From the NCBI RefSeq assembly GCF_041886205.1, contig NZ_CP169029.1: a DNA stretch of 64,000 nucleotides. One strand, 5' to 3'. How positions within the stretch are numbered: the first letter of the stretch is position 1; each line of letters starts with the position of its first letter. The DNA is from Escherichia coli (lineage in GTDB: Bacteria > Pseudomonadota > Gammaproteobacteria > Enterobacterales > Enterobacteriaceae). Positions 43,367 to 63,571 of the stretch are shown here, piece after piece. The notes beneath the pieces are model-generated. The model worked only from the letters and a program-made list of their open reading frames with translations. It made no database searches and was not told the DNA's origin. A program made the translations under genes and the position numbers.

Positions 43367-44386
43367 ATGAAAAGCATATTAATTGAAAAACCGAATCAAC
43401 TGGCGATTGTCGAACGTGAAATACCCACCCCGTCAGCGGGTGAAGTACGAGTAAAAGTGAAACTTGCCGGAATTTGTGGTTCAGATAGCCATATTTATCG
43501 TGGGCATAATCCTTTTGCGAAATATCCGCGCGTCATTGGTCATGAATTCTTTGGCGTCATTGATGCAGTGGGTGAAGGCGTGGAAAGCGCCAGAGTCGGT
43601 GAACGTGTTGCTGTCGATCCGGTGGTCAGCTGTGGGCATTGCTATCCGTGCTCTATAGGTAAACCGAACGTTTGTACGACACTGGCTGTATTAGGTGTGC
43701 ACGCTGACGGTGGTTTCAGTGAATATGCCGTGGTTCCGGCAAAAAATGCGTGGAAAATTCCTGAAGCAGTGGCCGATCAATATGCGGTAATGATCGAACC
43801 TTTTACCATTGCGGCTAACGTAACCGGACATGGTCAACCGACTGAAAATGATACCGTTCTGGTTTATGGTGCCGGTCCAATCGGCCTGACGATCGTTCAG
43901 GTATTAAAAGGCGTCTATAACGTTAAAAATGTGATTGTTGCCGATCGCATTGATGAACGACTGGAAAAAGCGAAAGAGAGCGGGGCTGACTGGGCGATTA
44001 ATAACAGCCAGACACCGCTTGGCGAGATTTTCACTGAAAAAGACATCAAGCCGACATTAATTATCGATGCGGCTTGTCATCCTTCTATCCTGAAAGAGGC
44101 CGTAACGCTGGCTTCTCCAGCGGCACGTATTGTATTGATGGGCTTCTCCAGTGAACCGTCTGAAGTGATTCAGCAAGGAATTACCGGAAAAGAACTCTCT
44201 ATTTTCTCTTCACGCTTAAATGCAAATAAATTCCCGGTCGTTATCGACTGGTTAAGTAAAGGGTTAATTAAACCAGAAAAATTAATTACCCATACGTTTG
44301 ATTTCCAGCATGTTGCTGATGCCATTAGTTTATTTGAACAGGATCAAAAGCATTGCTGCAAAGTCTTACTCACTTTTTCTGAATAA
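43367..44386 (+). CDS. rspB: zinc-dependent alcohol dehydrogenase family starvation-sensing protein
   Basis: Start trimmed to ATG (MKSILIEK...), 339 aa; GHEFFG and Rossmann GAGPIG motifs. Confidence 0.85.
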   Translation: MKSILIEKPNQLAIVEREIPTPSAGEVRVKVKLAGICGSDSHIYRGHNPFAKYPRVIGHEFFGVIDAVGEGVESARVGERVAVDPVVSCGHCYPCSIGKPNVCTTLAVLGVHADGGFSEYAVVPAKNAWKIPEAVADQYAVMIEPFTIAANVTGHGQPTENDTVLVYGAGPIGLTIVQVLKGVYNVKNVIVADRIDERLEKAKESGADWAINNSQTPLGEIFTEKDIKPTLIIDAACHPSILKEAVTLASPAARIVLMGFSSEPSEVIQQGITGKELSIFSSRLNANKFPVVIDWLSKGLIKPEKLITHTFDFQHVADAISLFEQDQKHCCKVLLTFSE

Positions 44387-44443
44387 TACTAATAACGGCG
44401 AGTAAGTAGTACGCATCTTACCTCTTTTTTAGAGATAACCATT

Positions 44444-44572
44444 ATGACAATAGAAAAACACGAAAGAAGCACTAAGGATTTGGTGAAAGCAGCAGTATCG
44501 GGATGGCTGGGCACTGCGCTTGAATTTATGGATTTCAAGAGTCATACGTGTCAACTATTTGATAAATATTAA
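44444..44572 (+). pseudogene. ydfJ: probable 5' fragment (42 codons) of a ydfJ-like MFS transporter gene interrupted by the prophage
   Basis: Short ORF MTIEKHERSTKDLVKAAVSGWLGTALEFMDF... ending abruptly next to the integrase gene; in K-12 the Qin prophage splits ydfJ beside rspB (recalled, not aligned). Confidence 0.45.
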
Positions 44573-44573
44573 A

Positions 44574-45869
44574 TTAATTTTTCATTGCTTCGTTATGGGG
44601 CATGGTTGGGGCAAACTCGCTTAACTGTGTATTTAACAAAGCTACCTGTGCATTATTGTTTTCAGACATCCATTTTCCGTATACCTGAAATACCATTTGC
44701 GCATCTGCATGGCCCATCTGGTTTGCTATAAATGCCGGGTTAGCACCAGCTGTCAGCGACCAGCAGGCATAAGTATGTCTCGACTGATATGATTTTCGAT
44801 GGCGGAGTCCGGCACGTTTTATCGCTGCGTCCCACATCTGCCTTATTGAGTCAACGGTAAAATGGTCACCATAATTTTTTACTCTCGCTGACACTTCAGG
44901 TTGAAAAACAAAGGTGCATTTATGTTTTTCTGTTCTGCCATACTCTCTGAGGTGAACATCAATGATATGCTCTTTGCTCAGTCTCGTTAATGTCATCTGA
45001 CTCCGGAGAGCGTCGATTGCTGGCTTAATAAGATGAATGACCCGATTGGTTCCCGCCTGTGTTTTTGGGACCGTGAAACGGTCTTTTGCTAAATTTCTCC
45101 TGATCATCATTGTTCCATTTTTCAGATCTATGTCCTCCCATCCAAGTGCACACAGCTCACCAGGGCGAACGCCAGTATAAACAGAAACACACCATAAATT
45201 TTTGGCTTGCTGATTTCTGCACGCATCGATAAGACGGATGAATTCCTCCCGCGAAAGAGGATCCGGAATGGTTCTTGATTCCTTTAATGGCGAGATCCCC
45301 TTAAACGGGTTATCTGCCAGGTAACCGTTATCAACACCAAACTGGAACACGGCGTTAAGATTTGTCATGTAATTATTTACAGTTACAGCCGATCTCCCTG
45401 GTTGTGTAACAATATAGTTACTTTTGGGGATCTGGTATCCAGTCAGTAGCTCTTTACGAACCTCCAGTAATTTTTCTTTATTAATCGATGAGGCAAGATT
45501 TTTTTCACCGATTATGCTCAGGATATTTTTGATGACGGCACGGTATGTGTTGAGTGATGTTTTGGCGACTTCAGTTTCTTTCAGTGCCAGAAATTTTTCA
45601 GCCAGTTCTTTTATGGTTAAATCTTGTCGGGCCTCACCAAATTTTTCCAGATTGCGTGAGGAGGGAAACTGTTTTGCATAGTCGAAAACACCAGTTTTTA
45701 TTGCGTAACAAACAGAGGAGCGTAGTTCACCTGCAACGCGCCTGTTTTTTGCTGTGTCAGGAACCCCCAGATTTTCCCTGACTCTTACGCCTTTATAAAC
45801 AAACCAGATACGTAATTTCCCTCCATGGTTTTCCACGCCTGTCGGATATTTCATTTCAACTTCTCTCAT
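44574..45869 (-). CDS. phage integrase, tyrosine recombinase family
   Basis: 431-aa ORF with C-terminal catalytic motifs (…RHTYACW…HADAQMVFQVYGKW…); adjacent to the presumed attL; true start may be the internal MKYPTG. Confidence 0.85.
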   Translation of the reverse strand: MREVEMKYPTGVENHGGKLRIWFVYKGVRVRENLGVPDTAKNRRVAGELRSSVCYAIKTGVFDYAKQFPSSRNLEKFGEARQDLTIKELAEKFLALKETEVAKTSLNTYRAVIKNILSIIGEKNLASSINKEKLLEVRKELLTGYQIPKSNYIVTQPGRSAVTVNNYMTNLNAVFQFGVDNGYLADNPFKGISPLKESRTIPDPLSREEFIRLIDACRNQQAKNLWCVSVYTGVRPGELCALGWEDIDLKNGTMMIRRNLAKDRFTVPKTQAGTNRVIHLIKPAIDALRSQMTLTRLSKEHIIDVHLREYGRTEKHKCTFVFQPEVSARVKNYGDHFTVDSIRQMWDAAIKRAGLRHRKSYQSRHTYACWSLTAGANPAFIANQMGHADAQMVFQVYGKWMSENNNAQVALLNTQLSEFAPTMPHNEAMKN

Positions 45870-45888
45870 TAGTTAGTGTGGCTTTTAG

Positions 45889-46140
45889 TCAAGTAAGATG
45901 ACGTCTTGGTCTTGCTGATGCCTGGCGCTCAATCCAGCGATCAATTTCTTCCAGGTTGTAAAAGCATGGACTGTTATCCCATGGCATACCGTCATGAGCG
46001 ACATGCTTATATTCCCTTCCTTCCATAAACGATTTTTCCCGGGCCTTTTTTAACGTACCTTTTTTTATTCCTTTCAGCGCAATTAACTGCTCTTCGGATA
46101 CCCATTTGCCGGGAGAGACAATCATGATTACTTCGCTCAT
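45889..46140 (-). CDS. putative excisionase / small DNA-binding protein
   Basis: 83-aa ORF immediately upstream of int in the same orientation. Confidence 0.55.
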   Translation of the reverse strand: MSEVIMIVSPGKWVSEEQLIALKGIKKGTLKKAREKSFMEGREYKHVAHDGMPWDNSPCFYNLEEIDRWIERQASARPRRHLT

Positions 46141-46212
46141 CGATTTCTTTATCTCTTACATCAGACGAGCGCCGGTTGCAGAATACCAGTCACAACCGGC
46201 GACAGTTGAACA

Positions 46213-47935
46213 TTAAGAATCAGCCTGACTCGGGATCAGTTTTTGCCAGATAGCTGAAACGTATTTTGCCTGGTAACGGGCGTCATCAAGTGCATTATGG
46301 CGCTCACCTTCGAATGGAATAGCCGTTCTGGCATCGAAGTCTATGGCTTTCCCCAGCTCAACGATTGTGCGTACATCGCGATCGTTGTAGTAACGCCACG
46401 GGCAGGGGATCCCCTGCCGTTCGTATGAACGGCGCAAAATCGTGTTGTCGAAGTTGGCTCCATTTCCCCAGACATGAACAAAAAATTCACCGGAGTTTTC
46501 GTCGATAAATTCCCGCAATTGTAACAGTGCATCATCTAACGGGATTTCATCGGTCATAATGGCAGATTGCGCTTCGCGTGATTGTTTAAGCCACCATTTA
46601 ATGGTGTCCCGATCAATGACTCCGCCAGCAGTTTCCAGATCGATAGTCTTACTAAATTCCGGTCCCATATCTCCGGTTTGCGGATCGAAAAATATTGCAC
46701 CTATTGAGATAATCGGGGCATCGGGATTTTTTCCCATGGTTTCAAGGTCGATCATCAGATGAATCCCCGCTCTGCTGGTGGATGTGAGATTATGATGACC
46801 GTTTGCCTTAATTAAGGGATCTGACGCCTCGCCAGTTTCACTATCGCTGGCATGATGCTGATTGCCGCCAGTGTTCTCCTTGTGCTGATGCGCAGTGCCT
46901 TCTATTTCCTCCGGATCATTTTCCTGAACTTCAGGCTGATTCTCTCCATCGAATATTTCCTGGTATGTTGCGTCACCCATCACCGCACCACAATCAGGGC
47001 AGTTGCCGCCACCGCTCTGACCGCAGGCGGTGCAGATCTTTTCCGGTTCCTGTTGCACTACTGGTTCAGGTTGTTTCGTTTCTGGCTCGTTTTGTTGCAT
47101 ATTTGGGCTGTTTTGTTCCGCTTTCTGGTCGTTCTGTTCCGTTTCTTGCTGGTTCTGGTTCACAGAATCGCGGGTCTGGATCCCCTTAATCCATTTCGGA
47201 TCATTCGGGTCGCTAATCCCTTCAACAAATTCACCACGTGATACTGCAAGCAGTTCATCGGCGTCAGGCTGGCTGATATTGGCTGCCTGCATAATTTTGT
47301 TTACTTCGTCAGCGGTAACTTTTACTGACCCTGGTTGTGCGGTCGTGTCAGATGCACCAGTATTTTGTTGTGAACCTGAGTATGTACCGTTTTTGCGGGC
47401 GAAATATTCTTCTTTCGTGATTTCAGTAGCCCCAGCAGACAGCGCCTTATCCAGACCAGAAAGTTTATTTGCGCGACCGTATTTTTCGCCATCCTTGTCG
47501 GTGAAGAGGAAGTAGAACGGCCCCTCACGTTCTACAGATGGTTCGACTTCCACTTTGCATTCGGTTTTTTCGTTGTCTGGAATTGCCGTTTCCACTGCAT
47601 CAGTTTCTGGTACTGGCGACGAGAGAGTATCAGTTGCGCTCTGATTTGTTCCTTCATCTTCAAACACGCCCTTTGTAGTCAGGTATTCAGTAATGTATTT
47701 GTTCAGTGCCACAGGGTCTTTGTGAATGTCGATCGGACGTTCACGGACAAGGCCAAAAATAGTCTGGCGGTCGTAGCGAAGGGCATCAGGCTGTTTGCGC
47801 ATTGATGCCGAGATACGCTTCCAGTCTTCGCGGTCGTTGTCGATAACTTCATTTTTTGCCCAGCGATGGATGCTGCCGTCAATGTTTCCGGCATCCACAT
47901 CACCAGGCCAGAGAGCGTAGGCCAGTTCGTCATCC
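46213..47935 (-). pseudogene. 3' portion of a phage exonuclease gene (DnaQ-like DEDDh 3'-5' exonuclease domain) interrupted by IS629
   Basis: Open frame continues upstream from the called ORF right up to the IS629 left end; C-terminus has exonuclease motifs (…MIDLETMG…, …HNALDDA…). Confidence 0.7.
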
Positions 47936-47989
47936 TGAACCGCCCCGGGAATCCTGGAGACTAAACTTCCTGAGAAAGAGGTAAACAGG

Positions 47990-48316
47990 ATGACTAAAAA
48001 TACTCGTTTTTCCCCCGAAGTCCGTCAACGGGCAGTCCGTATGGTTCTGGAAAGTCAGAGCGAATATGACTCACAATGGGCGACAATTTGTTCCATTGCT
48101 CCAAAGATTGGCTGTACGCCGGAGACTCTGCGTGTCTGGGTTCGCCAGCATGAGCGGGATACCGGGGGCGGTGATGGAGGGCTCACCACCGCTGAACGTC
48201 AGCGTCTGAAAGAGCTGGAACGTGAAAATCGTGAACTGCGCCGCAGTAACGATATCCTTCGCCAGGCTTCCGCTTATTTTGCGAAGGCGGAGTTCGACCG
48301 CCTCTGGAAAAAATGA
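47990..48316 (+). CDS. IS629 transposase OrfA (HTH)
   Basis: 108-aa [22 protein letters not shown]...; ends in an A-run slippery site. Confidence 0.85.
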
Positions 48317-49203
48317 TGCCACTGCTGGATAAGCTGCGTGAGCAGTACGGGGTCGGACCGCTATGCAGCGAACTGCATATTGCCCCGTCAACGTATTACC
48401 ACTGTCAGCAACAGCGACATCATCCGGATAAACGCAGTGCCCGTGCGCAGCGCGATGACTGGCTGAAGAAAGAGATACAGCGCGTATACGATGAAAATCA
48501 CAAGGTATACGGTGTGCGTAAAGTCTGGCGTCAGTTGTTACGGGAAGGTATCAGAGTGGCCAGATGCACTGTGGCACGTCTCATGGCGGTTATGGGACTT
48601 GCCGGTGTTCTCCGGGGTAAAAAGGTCCGTACGACCATCAGCCGGAAAGCCGTTGCCGCAGGCGACCGCGTAAACCGTCAGTTCGTGGCAGAACGACCTG
48701 ACCAGCTGTGGGTGGCTGATTTTACTTACGTCAGCACATGGCGGGGCTTCGTCTATGTGGCGTTCATCATTGATGTGTTTGCCGGATACATCGTGGGGTG
48801 GCGGGTCTCATCGTCCATGGAAACGACATTCGTGCTGGATGCACTGGAGCAGGCGTTATGGGCCCGTCGACCGTCCGGCACGGTCCATCACAGTGATAAA
48901 GGTTCTCAGTATGTATCGCTGGCCTACACACAGCGGCTTAAGGAAGCCGGATTACTGGCATCAACAGGAAGTACAGGCGACTCGTATGACAACGCGATGG
49001 CGGAGAGCATCAATGGTCTTTACAAAGCGGAGGTAATACACCGTAAGAGCTGGAAAAACCGTGCAGAAGTGGAACTGGCCACACTCACGTGGGTGGACTG
49101 GTATAACAATCGACGATTGCTGGAAAGGCTGGGCCATACTCCTCCGGCAGAAGCAGAAAAAGCTTATTATGCTTCCATCGGAAACGATGATCTGGCAGCC
49201 TGA
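48313..49203 (+). CDS. IS629 transposase OrfB (DDE integrase domain), -1 frame relative to OrfA
   Basis: 296-aa ORF with DDE motif region; overlaps orfA in the -1 frame as in IS3-family elements. Confidence 0.85.
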
Positions 49204-49245
49204 GTTCACAGATAAAACACTCTCCAGGAAACCCGGGGCGGTTCA

Positions 49246-49760
49246 TCCAGTGTTTTCCATGTCTGCTTGTATTCGCGATGAATGGCAGCAATGACCGGGT
49301 TGATTTTTCCTGTTGAATTTTCAGTGTGCTGTTGATTGGCTCTGGCACGGGCGAGATCAACAACAGACGTGTATTTTCCGGCTTCCTTGCGTTCACCTTC
49401 GCGACGTTTTTTCCAGATGCGCATCTCTGCCTGAATTTCGGGCCATTTGGCACCAGGCTTACATTTATGCTTAACCCACCCGATGGCATGCAGCTTAAGC
49501 TCCGGATACATAGCGTTAACTTCTGGCATTTTCATCAACGCTTCAACGATATGGCCGTCGAATGTTGCCATGTCTTCCTGCAACAATTCCTGTGCGCTAA
49601 TCACCATATCAACAGTGATGTTTTCACATGTGTCGAACTTAACCATGACAGCGTTCTGTACTTCAGGGGCTAGGTTGTCAAAAGTGACGTTCATCGGATC
49701 GGATTCAGTCTCGACCGGGACAAAGGAAGCAGACGCCTCATCCCAGCGGTTTTCCTGCAT
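49246..49760 (-). pseudogene. 5' portion of the IS629-interrupted phage exonuclease gene
   Basis: ORF beginning MQENRWDEASASF... runs into the IS629 right end; its last ~12 called codons are IS-derived. Confidence 0.6.
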
Positions 49761-50017
49761 ATATTCAGCATCCCAGGAATCGAGGGCAGGGCGGGGTATA
49801 CCGGGTTTATCCTCGCAAACAAGAAATTTATAAGCGCAGTCCTGAGCAGCCGGATAATGTTCCAGGAATTGCCAGTGAAATTTTGCGCGGGCGCGACGTT
49901 CATCACCGGCTTCAATGGCAGTGGCTACAGTGAGACGAACTTCGCCGTGCGCTTTCGTGTTGTGTGCCTGCTTTTAACCACGTCAGGCGAGGTGGTATCC
50001 TTAAAATCACCACAGTT

Positions 50018-50593
50018 TTAAGGATTCATTAAGCAATGTCGCAACCACCAATAAATCCGCTTAAGAACATGAAAATTGATTACTGGTATAAAGCGCTTAC
50101 AGTTGTTGGCGCTGCGTTGTTTGTCTTTAATGGAACGTCTTTTTTTGACAGATATCCCGTTGTTCCATTGGATTTTTTGTCCTCCGGCATCTTTTTTATT
50201 GGTTTGGGGGAGTGGATTAATCACCCTCTCAAAGTGAGATTTATTGGTCCTGGAGTTTGGACTCGTGGATATAATCGTTCTTAGTGCGCACTCGGTATCA
50301 TCTTCGACATACTTGGTTGTTTCCTGATTGTTACAGGAGTCGTCAAGTTCTTCTGATGTAAAACCGCAAATGGGGCACGTAACGGGAATTTTGAAAAGCG
50401 TTTCTCCGGGTTCCAGAACAAAATTTTCTGCGGTCTGATTTTGCTTCTCATATTTGTGCTCCGCGTCATTGTGAGAGCACATTCTTATTCTGAGTGCCTG
50501 TTTAAACTCACTGAAGCTGAGAGCTTCTTCGCCTTCGGCAAGACCTTCGAAGTATTCTTCGTAAGCCTTTTCCATGATTGTGTCGAAATCCAT
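50018..50593 (-). CDS. hypothetical prophage early-region protein with CxxC zinc-ribbon-like motif; 3' extent uncertain
   Basis: ATG at 50593 preceded by RBS AGGTGAG; N-terminal ~100 aa protein-like (…VTCPICGFTSEE…), distal part low-complexity and overlapping a plus-strand ORF. Confidence 0.4.
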   Translation of the reverse strand: MDFDTIMEKAYEEYFEGLAEGEEALSFSEFKQALRIRMCSHNDAEHKYEKQNQTAENFVLEPGETLFKIPVTCPICGFTSEELDDSCNNQETTKYVEDDTECALRTIISTSPNSRTNKSHFERVINPLPQTNKKDAGGQKIQWNNGISVKKRRSIKDKQRSANNCKRFIPVINFHVLKRIYWWLRHCLMNP

Positions 50594-50594
50594 A

Positions 50595-50831
50595 TCACTC
50601 ACCTGAGTTTCTTTCCAGCCAGCGACGGGCACCATTTTCGGTTTTAAACGTTTTGCTTTTGGTATACGTCATCGCGGTGAACGTACCGTCCTGGTTGGGG
50701 AACACGCCACATACCGGAGATTCGCTGTTGCCAAGATCGATAGTATCCATGCTGACCTCATTTCCCCTTAACGCCGGGGTAGCGGAACAAAAACCTGCTG
50801 CATAGTTATTAAAGTTGAACCCTGCCGTCAT
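50595..50831 (-). CDS. hypothetical small prophage protein
   Basis: 78-aa ORF whose stop lies 1 nt before the next ATG (translationally coupled arrangement). Confidence 0.4.
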   Translation of the reverse strand: MTAGFNFNNYAAGFCSATPALRGNEVSMDTIDLGNSESPVCGVFPNQDGTFTAMTYTKSKTFKTENGARRWLERNSGE

Positions 50832-51047
50832 GTTCTTACGCCTCGGGCTGGCTACTTAACCCCTGACCACTGCCTGGTAACTCGAAGTATTGCCCTGCAT
50901 TCTGTGGGGCGGGGTGGGTGGCAGGCATATAATGTACTTTGCGTTCATTGTTGTAAAGTACTTTTAGTACATTTTGTGTGTAAAAAAATGAGATGGGATA
51001 AAGTGAAGCACAAACCCGGAGGAAGGCGCTACCGGATTTATGCTGGT

Positions 51048-51467
51048 TTAAGAGGCTTTTTGTTTTTTCTTTCGTGCTAACTCTTCGTAAATTGCATTGT
51101 ACTTCTGTTTTTTCTCTTCAAGAGTTTTTAAAAGTTCATCTGTCTCACTGTCAGGGAGCTCGTCCAGAAGGTCAATGATGATTTTTTGTCTTGGATTTAA
51201 CTCCTGATAGAAACGTACCTGTCCACTTTCTTCTGTATCCTCTCCCAAAAGATAGGTTGGTGTTGTTCCTATTAGTGTTGCTAATTCCCTTAATTTCTCC
51301 CGGCGAGGAATTGTTTCGCCATTAAACCATTTGCTAACCGCTTTTGGTGTTAATTTCATTCGACGGGCAATTTCTGCCTGCCTTCCATGTTGTTCATAAC
51401 CAGCGTTTTCACAGGCTAGCGCAAGCCTACTGGCGAACTCTTTACGCGCTTTATCTTCATGAACCAT
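51048..51467 (-). CDS. prophage repressor, XRE-family HTH (DicA/cI-like)
   Basis: 139-aa ORF with HTH (…MKLTPKAVSKWFNGETIP…); divergent from a Cro-like gene. Confidence 0.75.
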   Translation of the reverse strand: MVHEDKARKEFASRLALACENAGYEQHGRQAEIARRMKLTPKAVSKWFNGETIPRREKLRELATLIGTTPTYLLGEDTEESGQVRFYQELNPRQKIIIDLLDELPDSETDELLKTLEEKKQKYNAIYEELARKKKQKAS

Positions 51468-51546
51468 AAGTTCAATGATATTCGCTCTTGAATGTACTGT
51501 CAGTTCTGTTATAGCATGTACTCAAAGTTCACACTGTGAGGGTGAT

Positions 51547-51801
51547 ATGAACCAGAAAACACTTGAAGATGTAATCAAAACTGTTCGCGTTGCTGTTGTG
51601 GCCGACGTTTGTGGTGTCAGCCAAAGAGCAATCTATAAATGGATGGATAACGGAAAATTGCCTCGCACAGAATATACCGGCGAAACAAATTACGCTGAAA
51701 AAATCGCTCTTGCATCAAACGGATTATTTTCTGCCGATGCAATTTTAACTATTGGCAGGAATAAAACTACTACGAAAAAGCTGATGGGAGTTGATTCATG
51801 A
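51547..51801 (+). CDS. Cro/YdaS-like HTH protein
   Basis: ATG at 51547 with RBS GAGGGTGA; HTH (…VADVCGVSQRAIYKWMDNGKLP…); ATGA overlap with next gene. Confidence 0.65.
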   Translation: MNQKTLEDVIKTVRVAVVADVCGVSQRAIYKWMDNGKLPRTEYTGETNYAEKIALASNGLFSADAILTIGRNKTTTKKLMGVDS

Positions 51802-52223
51802 AAATCAAGCATGAACACATCCGCATGGCGATGAATGCCTGGGCGCATCCGGACGGCGAAAAAGTACCGGCTGCGAAAATTACCAAAGCGTATTTCGAGC
51901 TGGGAATGACGTTCCCGGAACTGTATGACGACAGCCATCCGGAAGCCCTGGCTCGCAATACTCAGAAAATTTTCCGCTGGGTGGAGAAAGACACCCCTGA
52001 TGCGGTTAAAAAAATTCAGGCGTTGTTACCAGCTATCGAAAAAGCAATGCCACCTCTGCTGGTGGCCCGAATGCGCAGTCATAGCTCAGCCTATTTTCGG
52101 GAACTAGTGGAGACGCGGGAACGACTGGTGAGAGACGCTGATGATTTTGTCGCAGTGGCGATCGCTGGTTTCAACCAGATGAATCGTGGTGGCCCTGCAG
52201 GAAATATTGTGGTTGTGCATTGA
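51798..52223 (+). CDS. YdaT-like prophage protein
   Basis: 141-aa ORF beginning MKIKHEHI..., same length class and context as Rac YdaT (recalled). Confidence 0.6.
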   Translation: MKIKHEHIRMAMNAWAHPDGEKVPAAKITKAYFELGMTFPELYDDSHPEALARNTQKIFRWVEKDTPDAVKKIQALLPAIEKAMPPLLVARMRSHSSAYFRELVETRERLVRDADDFVAVAIAGFNQMNRGGPAGNIVVVH

Positions 52224-52294
52224 CTCGCAATATTCATACCGGATCACTTCCGGCAATTTGTGAGTAAAAAGATTCGGTATCAAAAGAGGTGAGT

Positions 52295-53365
52295 ATGGCT
52301 AACGCCTGGCTCAGATTATGGCATGACATGCCAAATGACCCTAAGTGGCGAACAATTGCCAGGGTGTCAGGGCAGCCAATTGCAACAGTGATGGCAGTGT
52401 ATATCCACCTCTTGGTGAGCGCGTCACGAAATGTCACGCGAGGTCACATTGATGTCACGACAGAAGATTTGGCAAGTGCGCTCGACGTGACAGAAGAGGT
52501 AATTGATTCAATTTTGCAGACGATGCAGGGGCGGGTACTTGATGGTGATTTAATCACTGGATGGGAAAAACGCCAGGTGCTTAAAGAGGACAACGGCAAT
52601 ATTTCGCAAACCGCAAAATCTCCTGCAGAGCGCAAGAGGGCGCAGCGAGAGAGGGAAAGAAAGCGGGAACAAAATGGCGATTGTCACGGCGCGTCACGAA
52701 ATGTCACGCACATGTCACGACGAGTCACGACAGATAAAGATACAGATAAAGATACAGATCAAGAAGATCAAAACACTATGGTCCATGGCGTAAAAAACGC
52801 CACGAACCAGGCAGGGGATGTTCAGACCGTCAATCTTGGTCAGCCAGCAGGCACGACACCGGAAGCCGATTCAGCGTATGCGCTGAAAGCCGATTCGGGC
52901 GCTGTGCAGCAGGTGATGACCGCAAGGCCGGAGCAATCACACCAACTGCAGCAGCCCGAAGCCGATTCCGCCATTCAGCGGGAAGCCGATCGGGTAGTCC
53001 CGGAAAACACCGGGCAGTCTGTGGGACGAGTGGATTATCCGGATGTGTTCGAACAGGTCTGGCGGGAGTACCCGTTGCGTGCCGGAGCAAACCCGAAGAA
53101 ATCCGCTTTCAGTGCCTGGAAGGCCAGATTACGCGAGGGGGTGCCACCAGAGGCCATGCTGGATGGCGTGAGGCGTTACGCAAGATACTTGGCGGCTACC
53201 GGGAAAACGGGAACGGAATTTGTTCAGCGAGCGACGACGTTTTTTGGACCGGACCGGAATTTTGAGAACTCCTGGTTGCTCCCGGTAAGCGGCACGAACA
53301 ACCAGCGTTGTGTGAATCATATTTCTGAACCGGATAACGAAATTCCGCCGGGCTTCAGGGGGTAA
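52295..53365 (+). CDS. putative phage replication initiation protein (O/YdaU-like)
   Basis: Position after the cro-like gene; ATG at 52295 with RBS; internal iteron-like DNA repeats. Confidence 0.55.
   Translation: MANAWLRLWHDMPNDPKWRTIARVSGQPIATVMAVYIHLLVSASRNVTRGHIDVTTEDLASALDVTEEVIDSILQTMQGRVLDGDLITGWEKRQVLKEDNGNISQTAKSPAERKRAQRERERKREQNGDCHGASRNVTHMSRRVTTDKDTDKDTDQEDQNTMVHGVKNATNQAGDVQTVNLGQPAGTTPEADSAYALKADSGAVQQVMTARPEQSHQLQQPEADSAIQREADRVVPENTGQSVGRVDYPDVFEQVWREYPLRAGANPKKSAFSAWKARLREGVPPEAMLDGVRRYARYLAATGKTGTEFVQRATTFFGPDRNFENSWLLPVSGTNNQRCVNHISEPDNEIPPGFRG
52421..52760 (+). repeat. iteron-like direct repeats (putative prophage origin) inside the replication gene
   Basis: Exact 19-bp repeat GCGTCACGAAATGTCACGC at 52421-52439 and 52690-52708; about nine GTCAC motifs in two clusters; tandem ACAGATAAAGAT repeat at 52731-52760. 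Confidence 0.65.
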
Positions 53366-53405
53366 GTGTTAATTTCTGGTCATGAGGTAATTTTCAGGAG
53401 GGCTT

Positions 53406-53828
53406 GTGGCAAAAGTTTTTACACAAGAAGAGCGGGAAAAAATTAAAGGGCAGGTTGTTGAACTCGTACGCCAGAGTGGGCGCGAGACGTTAAGACAACT
53501 GGAAACTAAAACTGGGGCAACAAAATATATGATGAACGTTCTGGCCAGAGAGCTGGTTGCCAGTGGCGATGTATACAACTCTGGTTACGGGTTATTCCCG
53601 TCTGAACAGGCGCGTAAGGACTGGCAAAATGCCCGTAAAAAGCTCTCAAGGGCAAAGCTGAAGAAACCATCTGCGGTTGATCCGGACCTTATCTGGTCAT
53701 TACCTGATGGAGAAATACGTCGTTACGACAGGCGTCATAATATGATTTGTACTGAGTGTCGTAAAAGCGAAGTTATGCAGCGCATATTGTCGTTTTATCA
53801 GGGGGATGTTCGGTATTTATTGAAGTGA
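53406..53828 (+). CDS. hypothetical prophage protein
   Basis: 140-aa ORF with GTG start and RBS AGGAGGG 6 nt upstream. Confidence 0.45.
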   Translation: MAKVFTQEEREKIKGQVVELVRQSGRETLRQLETKTGATKYMMNVLARELVASGDVYNSGYGLFPSEQARKDWQNARKKLSRAKLKKPSAVDPDLIWSLPDGEIRRYDRRHNMICTECRKSEVMQRILSFYQGDVRYLLK

Positions 53829-54223
53829 CGAGATTAAAGTGCATTAGTTCAGATGCAAATTGACATTTTGTGGCACAGGGTAGAGCTAGCGTGGTTGTCC
53901 GCTTTGTGCCAACAGCGGACATTATGGAAGGTCAGAGTTAAAGATTAAAATGGGATGCTGTGTGTTTTCTCCAGGTTTTGCTCTATACCTTTCGGGATAC
54001 TCCACCGACAGAATACGAAAATCAACATTATCAACGGCTCGAAGTGTCTAGATTATCCATGGCAATTCATGGGAAATCCCATCCAACGGCTTATGCTTCA
54101 TGTTGCTTTTTGAGATCGCTTCTAGCATAGCTCCACTCAATAATGTTGTCGGGTCGTTGCTGATCGAAAAGGATACGGGATTCAATACCATTACCTAAAA
54201 AGCTGGTACCGGAACTCGGGCTG

Positions 54224-55228
54224 GTGGTCGTTAAGCCGGGCCGTGAATCCATGCCGGTATTCCACAATACCCGGGTACTGGTGGAGCCGGAACCGAAAAG
54301 CATGCGTAATCTGCCGTCCGGGGTCGTTCCTGCCGTTCGCCAGCCGCTGGTGGAAGACAAAACATTGCTGCCGTTTTTCAGTAACGCACGGGTAATTCGT
54401 GCTGCTGGTGGTGCTGGTGCATTGTCTGACTGGCTGTTGCGCCATATTAAATCCTGCCAGTGGCCACACGGCGATTATCATCACAGCGAAACCGTTATTC
54501 ACCGATATGGTACCGGCGCAATGGTGTTGTGCTGGCACTGCGACAACCAGCTGCGTGACCAGACATCCGAATCACTCGAGCAACTTGCTCATCAAAACCT
54601 GTCAGCATGGATGATTGACGTCATCGGTCACGCAATAAGCGGTACGCAGGAGCGTGAATTATCTCTGGCTGAATTATCCTGGTGGGCGGTCCGCAATCAG
54701 CTGGCGGACGCGCTACCGGAAGCGGTATTACGTCGCTCGCTGGGATTACCAGCGGAAAAAATCTGCTCGGTGTACCGCGAAAGCGACATCGTACCGGGAG
54801 AGCAGACCGCCACCAGCATATTGAAACAGCGCACAAAAAATCTTGCACCGTTGCCTCACGCCCACCAGCAACAAAACCCATCACAGGAAAAGACGGTGGT
54901 AAGCATCACCGTTGATCCAGAGTCTCCGGAATCTTTCATGAAGCTGCCTAAACGTCACCGGTGGGTTAAGGAGAAATACACACGCTGGGTTAAGACACAG
55001 CCGTGTGCTTGCTGCGGTATGCCAGCCGACGATCCGCATCATCTGATTGGTCACGGGCAGGGCGGAATGGGAACCAAAGCACATGATCTCTTTGTTTTGC
55101 CTTTGTGCAGAAAGCATCACGACGAGTTGCATACGGATACCGTGGCATTTGAAGAGAAGTATGGCTCCCAACTGGAGCTGATTTTTCGATTTATCGATCG
55201 CGCGCTGGCAATTGGTGTGCTGGCCTAA
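54224..55228 (+). CDS. DUF968-family prophage protein with C-terminal Cys/His (HNH-like) motif
   Basis: C-terminus …[43 protein letters not shown]…; start uncertain (GTG 54224 or ATG 54251). Confidence 0.55.
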
Positions 55229-55245
55229 TTTTGTGGAGTAAGTTG

Positions 55246-55623
55246 ATGCGTGATATTCAGATGGTTCTTGAGCGTTGGGGGGCATGGGCGGCTAATAATC
55301 ATGAAGATGTGACCTGGTCGTCCATTGCCGCCGGTTTTAAGGGATTAATTCCTTCAAAAGTAAGATCTCGTCCGCAATGCTGTGACGATGACGCGATGAT
55401 CATTTGTGAATGTATGGCTCGCCTGAAAAAAAACAACAGCGATTTACATGATTTATTGGTGGACTATTATGTCGGCGGCATGACTTTTATGGCGCTTGCA
55501 CATAAGCATGGGCGATCTGATTGTTGGGTTGGCAGGATGCTCCAGAAAGCTGAGGGCGTAGTGGAGGGCATGCTGATGGTGTTGGATCTCCGATTGGAGA
55601 TGGATGCTGATTGTTCGAAATAA
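55246..55623 (+). CDS. putative late-gene antiterminator (small Q-like family)
   Basis: 125-aa ORF with RBS GGAG, located just upstream of a terminator and the lysis region; family assignment from memory. Confidence 0.45.
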
Positions 55624-55721
55624 TTAAAGGAAAAGTTGCTGTCTGATTTTCATTAGTCTAACATTTTAAATGTTGGAATCGCAACGTAGTTATTATCATA
55701 TAACAGCTTGTTTCCTGATTT

Positions 55722-55750
55722 AGCCAGCCTCCCCAAAGGCTGGTTTTTTT
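55722..55750 (+). terminator. intrinsic terminator about 100 bp downstream of the Q-like gene (candidate tR')
   Basis: Hairpin GCCAGCC-TCCCCAAA-GGCTGG followed by a T7 run. Confidence 0.6.
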
Positions 55751-55778
55751 CTAATAAGTATCATTTCGGGTGGGGATT

Positions 55779-56303
55779 TTATTGTTTAACCCATAATAGT
55801 TCATTGACATTGAATCCCAACTTTTGAGCGGTACGCACATAGTCTGCTTTTACATTATCTGGAATAGTTTGGGTCCTTGCCAGAATCCATAGGTATTCTC
55901 TGTTCGGACCACTGACAAGAGCATACTTATACTCATCATCCAGTTTGATTACATTATAGCCACCATAGAAGGGGCCAAAAAACGAAACTTTCAACGCTGC
56001 AGTTTTAGTATCTCCAGTAAAGTATGCTTTACCTTCGCTCTCGCTCCATTTGTTTTTCGTTGGATCGTATCCACGGTTAAGTACGCGAATCCCTCCGTCG
56101 TTCCGTTTTTCATAAGTAGCGCTGACCTGTTCCAGACCACGTTCGAACCAGTTCTCGAGGCGAGCTATTTCATACCATTTTCCGAGGTAGCGGTTGGCGT
56201 CAAAATTTGTAATCGGCTGCACACCTTTAGGTGGTGTCGGGGCCTTACATGCTATAAGAGTGAAAGAGAGTGCAATGCCAGTCAACACAGGCCATAACTT
56301 CAT
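55779..56303 (-). CDS. outer-membrane lipocalin lipoprotein (Blc-like)
   Basis: 174-aa ORF with lipobox (LIAC) and lipocalin motifs (…NFDANRYLGKWYEIARL…, …KVSFFGPFYGGYNVI…). Confidence 0.75.
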   Translation of the reverse strand: MKLWPVLTGIALSFTLIACKAPTPPKGVQPITNFDANRYLGKWYEIARLENWFERGLEQVSATYEKRNDGGIRVLNRGYDPTKNKWSESEGKAYFTGDTKTAALKVSFFGPFYGGYNVIKLDDEYKYALVSGPNREYLWILARTQTIPDNVKADYVRTAQKLGFNVNELLWVKQ

Positions 56304-56495
56304 AATAAATCCTGTACTTTTGATAGTTGAGAGTAAGTATGAAAGATAGATGAGTACGACCGATCACTTAAAGAACTTTCCTACTATATTAGGAATAGTC
56401 AATAACAGAAAAATTGTCAGTGATGAAGCCAGAAAGGCAATTTAGTCCGTGCACTACAAAGTTTATGTGTTAATGAATTAGTCAAGGGGGAGGAA

Positions 56496-57455
56496 ATGAT
56501 AAAAAAACCTGTGATTGGGATCAGCGGTTGTTTGGGCGGTTCTGCTGTTCGTTTTGATGGTGGTCACAAAAGAGATGACTTTTTAATGGACAAATTAGTG
56601 GAATGGGTAACATTCAGACCAGTATGTCCGGAAATGGCTATAGGGCTGCCAGTTCCGCGTCCTGCTCTACGACTTGTGCGCTCGAAGCAAGGAAATATAC
56701 GGATGTGTTTCAGCCACGACCAGAATGAGGATGTGACAGAGAGAATGACAGAGTTTAGTCGTTCTTATATGGACAAATTAAAGGATGTATCGGGGTTTGT
56801 GGTTTGTGCTAAATCTCCCAGCTGTGGCATGGAGCGCGTGCGTGTCTATGATGAAAATGGTAATCGAGGTCGTAAAGATGGAGTGGGACTATTTACGAGC
56901 ACTTTGATGGAAAAGTTTTCCTGGCTACCGGTTGAAGAGGATGGGCGATTACATGATCCAGTGCTTCGTGAGAATTTTATTGAAAGAGTTTTTGCTTTGC
57001 ATGAGCTCAATCACCTTTACAAGGAGAAATTATCAAGAAGAGAGTTATTAGCTTTTCATAGTCGTTATAAGCTTCAGTTGTTGGCGCATAGCCAGGCAGG
57101 CTATAAAGATATGGGACCATTTGTGGCTGCAATACACGAGTGGGCGGACCTTGAATCATACTTTGAGGTGTATCGTGATAATCTGATGGCGATTCTCAGA
57201 AAACCAGCATCACGTAAAAATCACACGAATGTGCTGATGCATATACAGGGGTATTTTAGTAATTACTTAAGTACACGCCAGCGTAAAGAGTTGAGCGAGG
57301 TTATACTTAACTATCGCTTTGGCACATTGCCTCTTCTTGCGCCGTTGACTCTGCTGAAGCATTATCTGGGTGAGTATCCTAATGATTACTTGCTTACACA
57401 GAATTACTTCGATCCCTATCCGGAAGAACTGGCTCTAAGACTGATGGTGAATTAA
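56496..57455 (+). CDS. DUF523/DUF1722 fusion protein (YbgA-like C-terminal half)
   Basis: 319-aa ORF with conserved Cys residues in the N-terminal half; family call from memory. Confidence 0.5.
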   Translation: MIKKPVIGISGCLGGSAVRFDGGHKRDDFLMDKLVEWVTFRPVCPEMAIGLPVPRPALRLVRSKQGNIRMCFSHDQNEDVTERMTEFSRSYMDKLKDVSGFVVCAKSPSCGMERVRVYDENGNRGRKDGVGLFTSTLMEKFSWLPVEEDGRLHDPVLRENFIERVFALHELNHLYKEKLSRRELLAFHSRYKLQLLAHSQAGYKDMGPFVAAIHEWADLESYFEVYRDNLMAILRKPASRKNHTNVLMHIQGYFSNYLSTRQRKELSEVILNYRFGTLPLLAPLTLLKHYLGEYPNDYLLTQNYFDPYPEELALRLMVN

Positions 57456-57861
57456 CTGTATGCGATATCATCTGAAAGTGATGAGTTCCTGTATGCAGGA
57501 TATTTACAATCGTAAAAACTACGCTATGATGCTCATAGTGTCAGTTTTTATAAAAATCCTGTTCACGCTAAAGAAAACATTGAGATGCAATTTAATGTTG
57601 GTAAACATACCAACCCCAAAAGATTTTATTCAATCTGTTTTTATATGAAGATATTTCAAGTGAATATAAAGAGCATATAATATTATTATTGCACGCAGCT
57701 ATTATAATATAACAGATTAGTTTAATGATTTGTTTTTTGTGAGTTAAACACATGGTTTTATAGTTGTGATGCAATGAGATTTTCCTTATTGTTGAACTGG
57801 CGAATATTGATTTTCCACCTATACTTACCTGGTGTAACCCCAATGATATCAGGTGGATAAT

Positions 57862-58575
57862 ATGTCATACATATGTTCTATCATTTTGGTGTTGAACTCG
57901 TTTGGTGTCCGAATTGGTAAAGAAGATATTTTGTTTAAAAAAGGAAATGCTGTCCTCATTGAATACAATTTAAAAGATCTTTTTTCGTCAAATACAGATC
58001 ATCTAATGATCGTAGATGTTGAGGAGAAAACAGTTAATGATTTCTTTAAAAACTACACACTCTCACCTTTTTCTGTAAGAAGGTTTTATCCGTCATACTT
58101 GATAGTAGAATGTGAAGATTTTTCATTGTTAAAGAACTTGGTTGCATGCTTGAATTGTGATAGCAAAACCGTGGATGTAGTTAGAAATCAAATATCACTT
58201 GCATGTCTTGCTGTCTTATCTTCAGAGAAAATAGTGCAAAGTTTTTTGTTCGGAAGTCTTAATAGCTTAGGTTGTAAAGTTAAGGCTATTATTCACTCGG
58301 ATATCTCAGCGTCATGGAGACTTTGTGATATATCTTCAAGATTATATATGAGCGAGAGTTTGTTAAAAAGAAAATTAAAAGACGAAGGATTATCGTTTAG
58401 TAAATTAATTCTTGAAGAACGAATGATGATGGCGCAAAGATTATTGATCTACAGTAACCATACTGTCGGCAAGGTGGCGGGAATATGCGGGTATGACAAT
58501 GCATCATATTTTGTAAGTGTTTTTAGAGGATATTTTGGTGTGCCTCCGCACCAATATTTATCAAGATTTTCTTAG
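57862..58575 (+). CDS. AraC-family transcriptional regulator
   Basis: C-terminal AraC-type HTH (…LLIYSNHTVGKVAGICGYDNASYFVSVFRGYFGVPPHQY…); RBS AGGTGG before ATG at 57862; gene and flanks visibly AT-rich. Confidence 0.75.
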   Translation: MSYICSIILVLNSFGVRIGKEDILFKKGNAVLIEYNLKDLFSSNTDHLMIVDVEEKTVNDFFKNYTLSPFSVRRFYPSYLIVECEDFSLLKNLVACLNCDSKTVDVVRNQISLACLAVLSSEKIVQSFLFGSLNSLGCKVKAIIHSDISASWRLCDISSRLYMSESLLKRKLKDEGLSFSKLILEERMMMAQRLLIYSNHTVGKVAGICGYDNASYFVSVFRGYFGVPPHQYLSRFS

Positions 58576-58765
58576 AAGATATGATGTGATGGCATTTTAT
58601 AAAGTTATTTTTTGAAGTGTAAGATTATACGATATTTTTAGCTACGCCAGAATAATTGCTGGCGTTTTTCTTTTTGAATAGATGTTCGGGCCTTACGCTA
58701 ATGTAACTTCTTTCCTTCTTCGAACCAAACCGTGTACACCATCCGTTATCTGCGGAGGTGAGGCT

Positions 58766-58981
58766 ATGAAATCCATGGATAAGTTAACAACGGGCATCGC
58801 CTACAGCACCTCTGCAGGCAGTGCTGGCTACTGGTTTTTACAGTTGCTCGATAAAGTCACGCCCTCACAGTGGGCGGCAATAGGTGTATTGGGTAGTCTG
58901 GTATTTGGCATGCTGACGTATCTGACAAATCTTTATTTCAAGATTAAAGAAGACAGGCGTAAGGCTGCGAGAGGAGAGTAA
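58766..58981 (+). CDS. phage holin, class II (S21-like pinholin)
   Basis: 71-aa product [26 protein letters not shown]... with two TM segments; RBS GGAGGTGA; first gene of lysis cassette. Confidence 0.85.
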
Positions 58982-58985
58982 TCCA

Positions 58986-59297
58986 ATGACTCAAGACTAT
59001 GAACTGGTTGTGAAAGGAGTCCGTAATTTTGAGAATAAAGTTACGGTAACTGTAGCCTTACAGGACAAAGAACGCTTTGACGGTGAAATTTTTGGCCTGG
59101 ATGTCGCCATGGACCGTGTTGAAGGAGCTGCGCTGGAGTTTTATGAGGCAGCAGCCAGAATGAGCGTCCGGCAAGTCTTCCTGGAAGTAGCAGAAAAATT
59201 GTCAGAAAAAGTTGAGTCTTATCTGCAGCATCAGTACTCCTTTAAGATTGAAAATCCTGACAATAAGCACGAGCGTCCTCATCATAAATATCTATGA
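58986..59297 (+). CDS. YdfR-like hypothetical protein located between holin and endolysin
   Basis: 103-aa ORF; same position and size as ydfR in K-12 Qin (recalled). Confidence 0.55.
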   Translation: MTQDYELVVKGVRNFENKVTVTVALQDKERFDGEIFGLDVAMDRVEGAALEFYEAAARMSVRQVFLEVAEKLSEKVESYLQHQYSFKIENPDNKHERPHHKYL

Positions 59298-59823
59298 ACA
59301 CAAAAATCAGATACGGCCTGTCGGCTGCCGTTCTGGCGCTGATTGGTGCTGGCGCATCTGCTCCTCAGATACTTGACCAGTTTCTGGACGAAAAAGAAGG
59401 TAACCACACAATGGCATACCGCGATGGTTCTGGCATATGGACCATCTGTCGGGGTGCCACAGTGGTGGATGGAAAAAACGTTTTTCCCAATATGAAACTG
59501 TCGAAGGAAAAATGCGACCAGGTCAACGCCATTGAGCGTGATAAGGCGCTGGCATGGGTGGAGCGCAATATAAAAGTTCCACTGACCGAGCCACAGAAAG
59601 CCGGTATCGCGTCATTCTGTCCCTATAACATTGGCCCTGGTAAGTGTTTTCCGTCGACGTTTTATAAGCGGCTTAATGCCGGTGATCGTAAAGGCGCATG
59701 CGAGGCGATTCGCTGGTGGATAAAGGACGGTGGACGTGATTGCCGCATTCGTTCAAATAATTGTTACGGTCAGGTTATTCGTCGTGACCAGGAGAGTGCA
59801 TTAACCTGCTGGGGGATAGAACA

Positions 59824-59827
<4 letters not shown>
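59294..59827 (+). CDS. phage endolysin, GH24 lysozyme with N-terminal signal-anchor-release (SAR) segment
   Basis: 177-aa ORF; hydrophobic Gly/Ala-rich N-terminus (…LSAAVLALIGAGASA…) followed by lysozyme domain. Confidence 0.85.
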
Positions 59828-60320
<493 letters not shown>

Positions 60321-60683
60321 GGTAATATTAAATCGGAACATTTACATCGCGGAATGTAAAATTTAAATAAAAAGGACTCTTCCATGAGCCAAAATTCCTG
60401 AAATCTTAAGGGTAAGATAAAAGGTCTTAATCAGAATGACACGTTATTATTAATAAATAAAGCTATTCTTTCATTGCTGTGTTTTTCTTTACAAAAGTAA
60501 TCCTTGCTATGGGTGGTTAATCATGCGTTAATGGTGTTCTGGTTTGTTACAAATTTATCTGAAGCAGTCATTGTTATAATTTTATTATTTGTACCTCTTG
60601 AGATTTCCTTGTTGGTTTTTCTCTCTGATATTTTTTTTCGGACCATTCTGCCCAAGGGCTAATTTCTTCAAAAGGTAATAATT

Positions 60684-60896
60684 ATGTCTAACAAAATGAC
60701 TGGTTTAGTGAAATGGTTTAACCCTGAAAAAGGTTTTGGTTTCATCACGCCGAAAGATGGCAGCAAAGATGTGTTTGTCCATTTCTCAGCAATTCAGAGC
60801 AACGATTTCAAAACATTAACTGAGAATCAGGAAGTTGAATTTGGTATTGAGAACGGACCTAAAGGTCCTGCCGCTGTTCATGTAGTGGCGCTTTGA
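60684..60896 (+). CDS. cspI: cold-shock protein (CspA family), prophage-encoded
   Basis: 70-aa [41 protein letters not shown]...; preceded by a long AT-rich leader. Confidence 0.8.
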
Positions 60897-61167
60897 GGTA
60901 GACAATATTACAAACCATATTCACTTTAGATGCCCGTGTTGTCATGGTTCCCAGTATAGAACATCATCTTTTGATGTTTCTGACATGAATCCTTTCGGGG
61001 CAAAATGTATCTTTTGTAAATCAATGATGATTACATTTGATAATATTTCACAATACTTAAATGCCAGCCGTCTGTCGTTGGATTTAAAAAAGTGAAAATG
61101 AAGGCTCCTTCGGGAGTTTTTTTGCTTGGTATCTATTCGATGGATACTCACATACTACGGTAACATC

Positions 61168-61398
61168 ATGAAAAAAATCATAGTTTTTTTTAACTCTGAA
61201 CCAGCAGTGGTAGTGCCAGCGATGACTGGAGTTAACACCATCATGCGTGAATATCCAAATGGCGAAAAAACACACCTTACTGTAATGGCCGCAGGGTTTC
61301 CATCTCTGACCGGAGATCATAAAGTCATTTATGTAGCAGCGGATCGACATGTAACTTCAGAAGAAATTCTGGAAGCAGCAATGAGACTCTTGAATTGA
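61168..61398 (+). CDS. hypothetical small prophage protein
   Basis: 76-aa ORF from ATG at 61168 (MKKIIVFF...); weak RBS. Confidence 0.35.
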   Translation: MKKIIVFFNSEPAVVVPAMTGVNTIMREYPNGEKTHLTVMAAGFPSLTGDHKVIYVAADRHVTSEEILEAAMRLLN

Positions 61399-61570
61399 TT
61401 TGATTCTAATGCATTGATAATAAATGATAATCATCTTTATCTGTTTGTGTGAAATTTAGACCGTCGTATGTTGATTATTGCGATGTTTCATCTTATCTTT
61501 TATACGTTTGCTCCATATAATTGACACTACTGTGTACCAGGACAGTCATAACAGACTAAAAGAGGAAATG

Positions 61571-61744
61571 ATGAACATTGAAGAGTTAAAAACAAAAACA
61601 GAAGCAGATATTTCTGAATATATAACAAAAAAAATCATTGAGCTTAAGAAAAAGACCGGGAAAGAAGTTACCAGTATCCAGTTTACTGCACGGGAAAAAA
61701 TGACTGGTCTTGAAAGCTATGATATCAAGATTGATTTAATCTAG
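61571..61744 (+). CDS. gnsB: GnsA/GnsB-family small protein
   Basis: 57-aa product MNIEELKTKTEADISEYITKKIIELKKKTGKEV...REKMTGLESYDIKIDLI. Confidence 0.75.
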   Translation: MNIEELKTKTEADISEYITKKIIELKKKTGKEVTSIQFTAREKMTGLESYDIKIDLI

Positions 61745-62039
61745 CATGTTTATAGTATTAGCATCAATTTCTCATCAGATGCTATTCAACAATACAAATT
61801 ACCCATAAACCTCGTTTTTACGGGGTTTTGTTATATTTAAACATTACCGAATAGATATAAATCTCGATTGTCGATGGTATTGGTTATGTGACAATACCTA
61901 GTCTTTCCGGTATGCCTGAAGAGAATACAAACGACAGATTATGTAAGGGAAACGCGCTGAAACTTTCACTCTTTCATGCTGAGTGATTTGACGTTATATT
62001 TTTAGCCGCAAGTGAAGAGCAAACGAATGGAGCGACAAA

Positions 62040-62246
62040 ATGCATAAAGATCAATACACTGATGCCCCCTCCCAGGAGCAGGTTCGTGTAAAAACTATGC
62101 TTAATAGCACCATTTCGATGGGTTACCCGGATGTTGTAATTGCATGTATAGAACATCAAGTATCTCTGGAAGCATTCAGGGCAATTGAGGCCGCGTTAGT
62201 AAAGCACGATAAGAATACGAAGGATTATTCCCTGGTGGTTGACTGA
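62040..62246 (+). CDS. hypothetical small prophage protein
   Basis: 68-aa ORF; no recognised family. Confidence 0.3.
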
Positions 62247-62469
62247 TCACCATAACTGCTAACCATTCTGACCATTTCACAAGTGACAGAGTCAATATCG
62301 TATTCTGTCACTGTAAGGCTAATACAGTACTGCAATTCAACTACAGCAATGCCTCGTATTTAGGTGAATTTACAATATCGTCCAGTTCGGATGCCGGCTG
62401 CATTTCTGAAGATAAGGCATTTCGGTTCGCGTATTTTCCCCTCATGCTCGTCAGTCCTGCGCGTAGTAA

Positions 62470-62838
62470 GAAACACCAAACGGGACGGTTACAGTCACCA
62501 TAAGCGATGATCATAACTTTGACCGTCAAATCATTATTCCGCCCATTATCTTTAACGGAATAGCGTATAGCGATCCGGGAAGTGGTAATAACCCGGGAGG
62601 TACAAGATACACGGGTTATGGTTTTGAAGTTCGCAAAAACGGTGTATTAATCGCATCCAGAGAAACTAAAGGGGCCATTCCCGGTAGCTACAGTGCGGTT
62701 ATTGATATGCCGAGTGGCAGGGGAAGCGTCACTCTGGAGTTTAAGGTTTTCCATAAAGGCAATCAGTGGGCAGGTAATATCACCGACTGTACGGTGATTG
62801 TGACCAAAAAAGCCGCTTCCGGCATCAGTATTCGTTGA
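62470..62838 (+). pseudogene. 3' remnant of an upstream tail gene (host-specificity J-like), no start codon
   Basis: 123-codon open frame ending at TGA 62836-62838 with no in-frame start; lies immediately upstream of lom as J does in lambda. Confidence 0.4.
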
Positions 62839-62907
62839 AATTGTTATAACCCATATAAGGGCACCAGAAATGGTGCCTTTTTTATTGCAGAAAAGCGAGA
62901 GGTAATT

Positions 62908-63507: not shown

Positions 63508-63533
63508 TTAGCCAGGTAACACAGTGTTATGAC

Positions 63534-63560
63534 AGCCCGCCTGTTCAGGCGGGCTTTTTT
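63534..63560 (+). terminator. intrinsic terminator downstream of lom
   Basis: Hairpin GCCCGCC-TGTTCAG-GCGGGC followed by TTTTTT. Confidence 0.7.
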
Positions 63561-63571
63561 GTGGGGTGAAT

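Follow-up and report, generated by a model that had tools for sequence, protein, structure and literature searches.

A predicted attL of a Qin-type lambdoid prophage in the 5' end of ydfJ in Escherichia coli

The cryptic prophage Qin of E. coli K-12 MG1655 (NC_000913.3, 1632277..1652745) lies between rspB and ydfI, where it splits the transporter gene ydfJ and carries the small gene ynfP and the integrase gene intQ. In a published survey, Qin was found at the ydfJ locus in 48% of strains, and its integration at the 5' end of ydfJ was described as costing that gene its promoter and 28 codons (PMC6379469). Escherichia phage mEp460_ev081 (LR597641), a relative of Qin, has been described as temperate and functional (PMC10448788). 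Immunoblotting has revealed the tagged product of K-12 ynfP, the peptide MTIEKHERSTKDLVKAAVSGWLGTALEFMDFKSHAC, which is listed with other small proteins seen in this way (PMC6001520, Table 1).

We analyzed a stretch of 64,000 nucleotides of E. coli DNA (the window), in which a short open reading frame (ORF) and an integrase gene converge downstream of rspB. Judged by alignment with intact ydfJ genes, other prophages and free phages, this region is almost certainly the attL of a Qin-type (mEp460/Tritos-like) lambdoid prophage inserted in the 5' end of ydfJ. Such a junction has already been described for K-12 and is very common; nothing about it is novel, and its significance beyond a correct annotation is small.

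The locus shares with K-12 Qin the rspB-ydfI site, the break after ATGGATTTC, the cores of attL and attR and the start of the short ORF, which is that of ynfP; the int DNA is 99.1% identical over positions 44000-45733. It differs in that K-12, due to an IS2 remnant, lacks the first ~41 codons of intQ as well as xis, both of which are present in full in the window, in that ynfP stops 6 codons earlier in K-12, and in most of the prophage interior. The phages mEp460_ev081, Tritos (OV696610), PhiR42_1 (PV340562) and HannyBb (PP925841) have complete genomes of 45-49 kb with head and tail genes, whereas the window copy is integrated, IS-disrupted and deleted, with a size estimated at ~24 kb. With recombination of the lambda type the locus has in common the arm-binding, core-binding and catalytic layout of the integrase, an adjacent xis, an attP beside int and a short core identical to the host sequence. 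The arm domain of the integrase is, in contrast, of the Arm-DNA-bind_2 type (PF12167), a tyrosine occupies the position of the first active-site histidine, and the target lies inside a coding sequence.

Host-phage junction downstream of rspB

Left of the prophage, rspB (43367..44386, + strand) is the last host gene still intact; this ORF of 1020 nt for a Zn-dependent oxidoreductase is annotated collinearly in NT1F34, JSMCR1 and K-12. It is followed by codons 1-31 of ydfJ and then by phage DNA, ydfJ being interrupted at the rspB-ydfI host site. As a reference for the uninterrupted gene we used strain GPEC1337, in which ydfJ (1368 nt) is annotated as the MHS-family MFS transporter YdfJ. The first 96 nt of this gene match the window with 99% identity (blastn, E 1e-43), far beyond what chance would give, and the pairwise alignment is perfect through ...GAATTTATGGATTTC (...GGATTTC) and unrelated beyond. 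The host-derived 5' remnant thus defined by alignment comprises 93 nt, or 31 codons (44444..44536, + strand), and identity with the uninterrupted gene ends right after ATGGATTTC (44528-44536). The next bases, 44537..44573, diverge from intact ydfJ and are 100% identical to the sequence beside int in mEp460_ev081; they are the first phage-derived bases and form the int-proximal arm of attP. When positions are mapped by collinearity with the start of ynfP (1652838, equal to window 44444), the end of the feature annotated as 'cryptic prophage Qin' in NC_000913.3 (1652745) falls on window position 44537, the first phage-specific base. The prophage boundary can in this way be placed to the base, with phage DNA from 44537. 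The first-pass annotation had taken the short ORF for the start of an MFS transporter, split by Qin as in K-12, and had expected attL around 44520-44575; both readings agree with these alignments, the attachment site lying at the left edge of that range.

The 9-bp exact core ATGGATTTC (44528..44536) is common to attB, attL, attR and attP and is presumed to be the region of strand exchange, the exact point of exchange presumably lying inside it. Comparison of attL, attR and attB extends the core to an imperfect repeat of 19 bp in attL, TGAATTTATGGATTTCAAG (44521..44539), whose counterpart in attR, TGAATT-ATGGATTTCCAG, differs from it by one indel and one mismatch; this repeat recurs at the right end of the prophage in K-12, NT1F34, JSMCR1 and wlxctx60. 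Side by side, attB reads CTTGAATTTATGGATTTC CAGTTATA, attL of the window CTTGAATTTATGGATTTC AAGAGTCA, and attR TGTGAATT-ATGGATTTC CAGTTATA.

Within the window, blastn and tblastn found neither attR nor any part of ydfJ beyond the 96-nt 5' end, as anticipated in the first-pass annotation, which placed the other end of the prophage outside the window. The matching attR core was found ahead of the 3' part of ydfJ in four genomes that share this left junction (K-12 MG1655, NT1F34, JSMCR1 and wlxctx60), where ...GTGAATTATGGATTTC is followed by CAGTTATATTCG (in longer form, ...ACCTGTGAATTATGGATTTC by CAGTTATATTCG) and then by the remainder of the gene. As the window itself ends inside the prophage, the position of attR in the source genome was estimated by collinearity with wlxctx60, and we infer that it lies at the window equivalent of ~68638, about 4.6 kb past the window end. 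There the right end is predicted to consist of the core GAATTATGGATTTC, ...GTGAATTATGGATTTCCAGTTATATTCG, followed by ydfJ codons 32-455 and ydfI.

The arrangement is best explained by integration of the phage at the 5' end of ydfJ, an MFS transporter gene, through a tyrosine integrase of the lambda type, attP having recombined with attB inside the shared 9-bp core, at ydfJ codons 29-31. On the left, the start region and 31 codons of ydfJ have stayed downstream of rspB and are now read into phage DNA for 11 codons; to the right of the break follow the int-proximal phage arm, int, xis and the early-left genes, with attR and the 3' part of ydfJ predicted past the window end. By the lambda paradigm, Int, bound to arm and core sites, would exchange strands within the 9 bp of identity, and Xis would direct excision. 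A scan of positions 44250-44750 for promoter and terminator consensus sequences found none.

Prophage interior and relation to K-12 Qin

The window prophage matches K-12 Qin in five patches only (92-99% identity), namely int, part of the exonuclease gene, 296 nt near ydfA, ydfU, and a block from the lysis genes to gnsB. To JSMCR1-type prophages the element is 99.7-99.9% identical, and its immunity and replication region resembles JSMCR1 and phage Tritos, not K-12 Qin; Tritos matches 59% of positions 49246-64000 at 96% identity. The prophage may accordingly not descend from the insertion seen in K-12 at all, a separate integration at the same attB, or a later replacement, by an mEp460/Tritos-like phage being the alternative suggested by the small number of shared patches, by the origin of the immunity and replication region, and by free phages of today that share its int and attP. 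Both att arms and int are nevertheless 99% identical to those of K-12, and lambdoid prophages swap modules after integration; the data fit one old insertion with later module exchange as well as repeated insertions. We regard a separate history as a serious possibility, though not the one that we favor; it concerns history only, and the identity of the feature as the attL of a Qin-type prophage is unchanged by it.

Several lesions mark the window copy. The exonuclease gene, related to K-12 ydfE, is cut by an insertion sequence; its C-terminal part (46213..47935, - strand) contains an Rv2179c-like 3'-5' exonuclease domain (Pfam, E 5e-67) and is collinear with its JSMCR1 counterpart, a gene of 2472 nt. 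The inserted element is an IS3-family insertion sequence of 1310 bp (47936..49245, + strand), delimited by its inverted ends and by the uninterrupted target in JSMCR1, with the genes orfA and orfB. It is flanked by a 3-bp target duplication, TCC (47933-47935 and 49246-49248), contains an ALIL frameshift pseudoknot (48271-48387), and is absent from JSMCR1, wlxctx60 and mEp460_ev081. Further along, 928 bp have been lost between two copies of TACAGTGA (junction at 49926-49933, relative to JSMCR1 L004 16321-17247), and with them ~21 codons at the start of the exonuclease gene, ydfD, dicB and dicF. K-12 Qin, in contrast, keeps dicB and dicF. An Rfam search of window positions 44000-64000 found no DicF RNA; the RNA is present in JSMCR1 (L004 17028-17079).

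At the far end (62476-64000), as in wlxctx60, a remnant of the tail-tip gene (gpJ) comes directly after gnsB, without any terminase, head or tail-shaft genes between the two; it is followed by lom (62908-63507) and the beginning of a tail-fibre gene. The arrangement at 61500-64000 has its exact counterpart, among 5426 complete genomes, only in wlxctx60, a strain from an Asian black bear in Japan, whose prophage carries an internal deletion different from that of the window. The window prophage as a whole has no full match among complete E. coli assemblies. By collinearity with wlxctx60, the size of the element is estimated at ~24 kb. With its IS-split exonuclease gene and its 928-bp deletion this copy of the prophage is defective, and it appears to lack the genes for head and tail.

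Two further observations concern the interior. At a junction at 54203-54208, the window is without a 3.8-kb block of JSMCR1 (L004 21531-25296) that holds an AbiH-family abortive-infection gene, a gene for a hypothetical protein of 463 aa, and hokD; this block looks like a variable defence/toxin islet within Qin-type prophages. Ahead of the prophage cold-shock gene cspI, Rfam identifies a cspA thermoregulator, a 5' UTR RNA thermometer (60538-60923).

Integrase, excisionase and the chimeric ORF

The integrase gene (44574..45854, - strand) encodes a tyrosine recombinase of 426 aa; translation from the in-frame ATG five codons further upstream, at 45869, would give 431 aa. In Pfam searches the arm-binding domain Arm-DNA-bind_2 is covered over profile positions 1-65 of 65 (E 1.6e-23), and the catalytic domain Phage_integrase (PF00589) is found with 66 bits against a cut-off of 27 (E 3.9e-18), so that the protein combines a catalytic domain with an arm-binding domain at full length. 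It has the same length as the integrases of mEp460_ev081 and JSMCR1, from which it differs in two residues (425/427 alignment columns match) and in one residue (426/427), respectively. Alignment with the integrase of Tn1549 places R230, K264, R359, H382 and Y392 at the active-site positions; Y356 occupies the position of the first catalytic histidine, which is a His in most family members and a Tyr also in the mEp460_ev081 integrase. Given its near identity to the integrase of a phage reported as functional, the window integrase is presumably active. Next to it, an ORF of 83 aa (45889..46140, - strand) encodes a putative excisionase (Pfam DUF1233, E 1.6e-31), annotated as 'excisionase family protein' in JSMCR1 and wlxctx60.

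The first-pass annotation had remarked that the integrase, unlike that of K-12 Qin, looked complete, and the comparison with K-12 bears this out: intQ is annotated there as a pseudogene behind the IS2 remnant, its frame starting at residue ~42. The frequency of the two states was assessed among 5426 complete E. coli genomes. With a probe of 401 nt, the rspB-ydfJ'-int junction was present in 2694 of these, or about half; in the non-junction genomes among the matches listed, the match stops at the break point, where ydfJ is intact. A longer probe, from rspB through xis, found int and xis DNA adjoining rspB in 2357 of these 2694 genomes at a coverage of at least 80%, which by itself is no proof of an open frame in each of them, while K-12 strains reached a coverage of only 77%. 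The notion that a full-length integrase is an oddity at the ydfJ site was rejected on these counts. Going by probe coverage, full int and xis DNA beside ydfJ' is the usual state and the truncation in K-12 the exception, which makes the truncated K-12 integrase the derived and less common form.

Because the att site, int and xis look intact, the window prophage could still be capable of excision; attR, too, is probably intact. A bolder proposal is that the element excises precisely and so rebuilds ydfJ, acting as a reversible switch of the transporter, and that the translated chimeric 42-aa peptide has a role of its own. If true, the element would be a switch of ydfJ and not a dead remnant; we consider this improbable.

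The peptide in question is encoded by an ORF of 42 codons plus TAA, with an ATG start (44444..44572, + strand), which starts 57 nt past the rspB stop (44386). Codons 1-31 are those of ydfJ, and the encoded residues are identical to YdfJ of GPEC1337; the last 11 codons and the stop are supplied by the phage DNA at 44537..44573. Its stop codon (44570-44572) and that of the integrase (44574-44576, - strand) are separated by one base (44573), in keeping with the gap of 1-2 bp between these converging frames that had been noted before. The ORF has no Pfam match. Of the complete MHS-family MFS transporter, ~455 aa with 12 membrane-spanning segments, it contains residues 1-31 only, and by this comparison it is a remnant of the ydfJ gene and not a transporter.

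In K-12 the collinear ORF is ynfP (b4534, 36 aa), which has the same start, 58 nt from the first base after rspB, at the same offset from that gene as in the window, and encodes MTIEKHERSTKDLVKAAVSGWLGTALEFMDFKSH.... Residues 1-34 are identical in both; residue 35 is T in the window and A in K-12, and the TAA of K-12 is CAA in the window, which adds 6 codons (42 vs 36 aa). Phage genomes carry the CAA version of this stop/sense site. With this, the short ORF can be explained as a ydfJ remnant equivalent to K-12 ynfP.

The annotation of ynfP in K-12, together with the immunoblot detection of its tagged 36-aa product (PMC6001520, Table 1), allows the converse reading, in which the ORF would encode a small protein with its own function and resemble ydfJ only secondarily. 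We think this very unlikely. The N-terminus of uninterrupted YdfJ accounts for 31 of the 42 codons; the other codons are sequence of the attP arm, which is present in free phages without such an ORF start; a single stop/sense change makes the length vary by strain; and the lack of a Pfam match likewise speaks against a separate gene. Detection of the peptide shows that the translation start of ydfJ still works, and is no demonstration of a function of the peptide.

Reconstructed attP and related phages

An attP of 153 nt, rebuilt by fusing the phage-side arms of attR and of the window attL, was searched against phage genomes. One continuous stretch of mEp460_ev081 matches it with 100% identity; in Tritos, PhiR42_1 and HannyBb, where it is likewise uninterrupted, the identity is 98-99.3%. 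In mEp460_ev081, the one phage inspected for gene order, int directly adjoins attP, and xis and the exonuclease gene come next, in the same order as in the window. Because the rebuilt attP is continuous in phage genomes, a random rearrangement is excluded as the origin of the junction.

The insertion sequences and deletions abundant in the window prophage might suggest that an integrase gene was joined to a cut ydfJ without site specificity, for example by a deletion or an IS-mediated rearrangement, but this is refuted by the two phage arms that join into a sequence uninterrupted in four phage genomes, and it is hardly credible given a break at the same base in thousands of genomes, a matching core repeat at the other end of the prophage and the lack of an IS end at the junction. 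Since mEp460_ev081, Tritos and other free phages share its attP and integrase, the locus can serve as an example of a cryptic prophage that has a living relative.

In the attP of mEp460_ev081, a search for repeats and counts of k-mers gave no convincing arm-type binding sites for the integrase. The output consisted only of A-rich words (TGAAAAAAC, in several copies) and a pair containing GGGGCA; neither set is convincing, and we therefore assign no arm sites.

A second core-like sequence, ACCTGTGCATTATTGTTTTCA, was observed at 44644-44664, in the coding sequence toward the 3' end of int. At 18 of 21 positions it agrees with the core region of attP and attR, ACCTGTGAATTATGGATTTCA, which by a rough hand estimate is only marginally unexpected by chance, and in the phage the two are 127 nt apart.

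Sequence related to the attachment region, from the att core into the 3' end of int, is also found in Stx2a-converting phages (LC727844 and others) at ~90% identity, and in some STEC genomes (O121 and others) an int of 94% identity adjoins rspB. From these two likenesses, Shiga-toxin phages whose integrase has diverged seem to use ydfJ as well.
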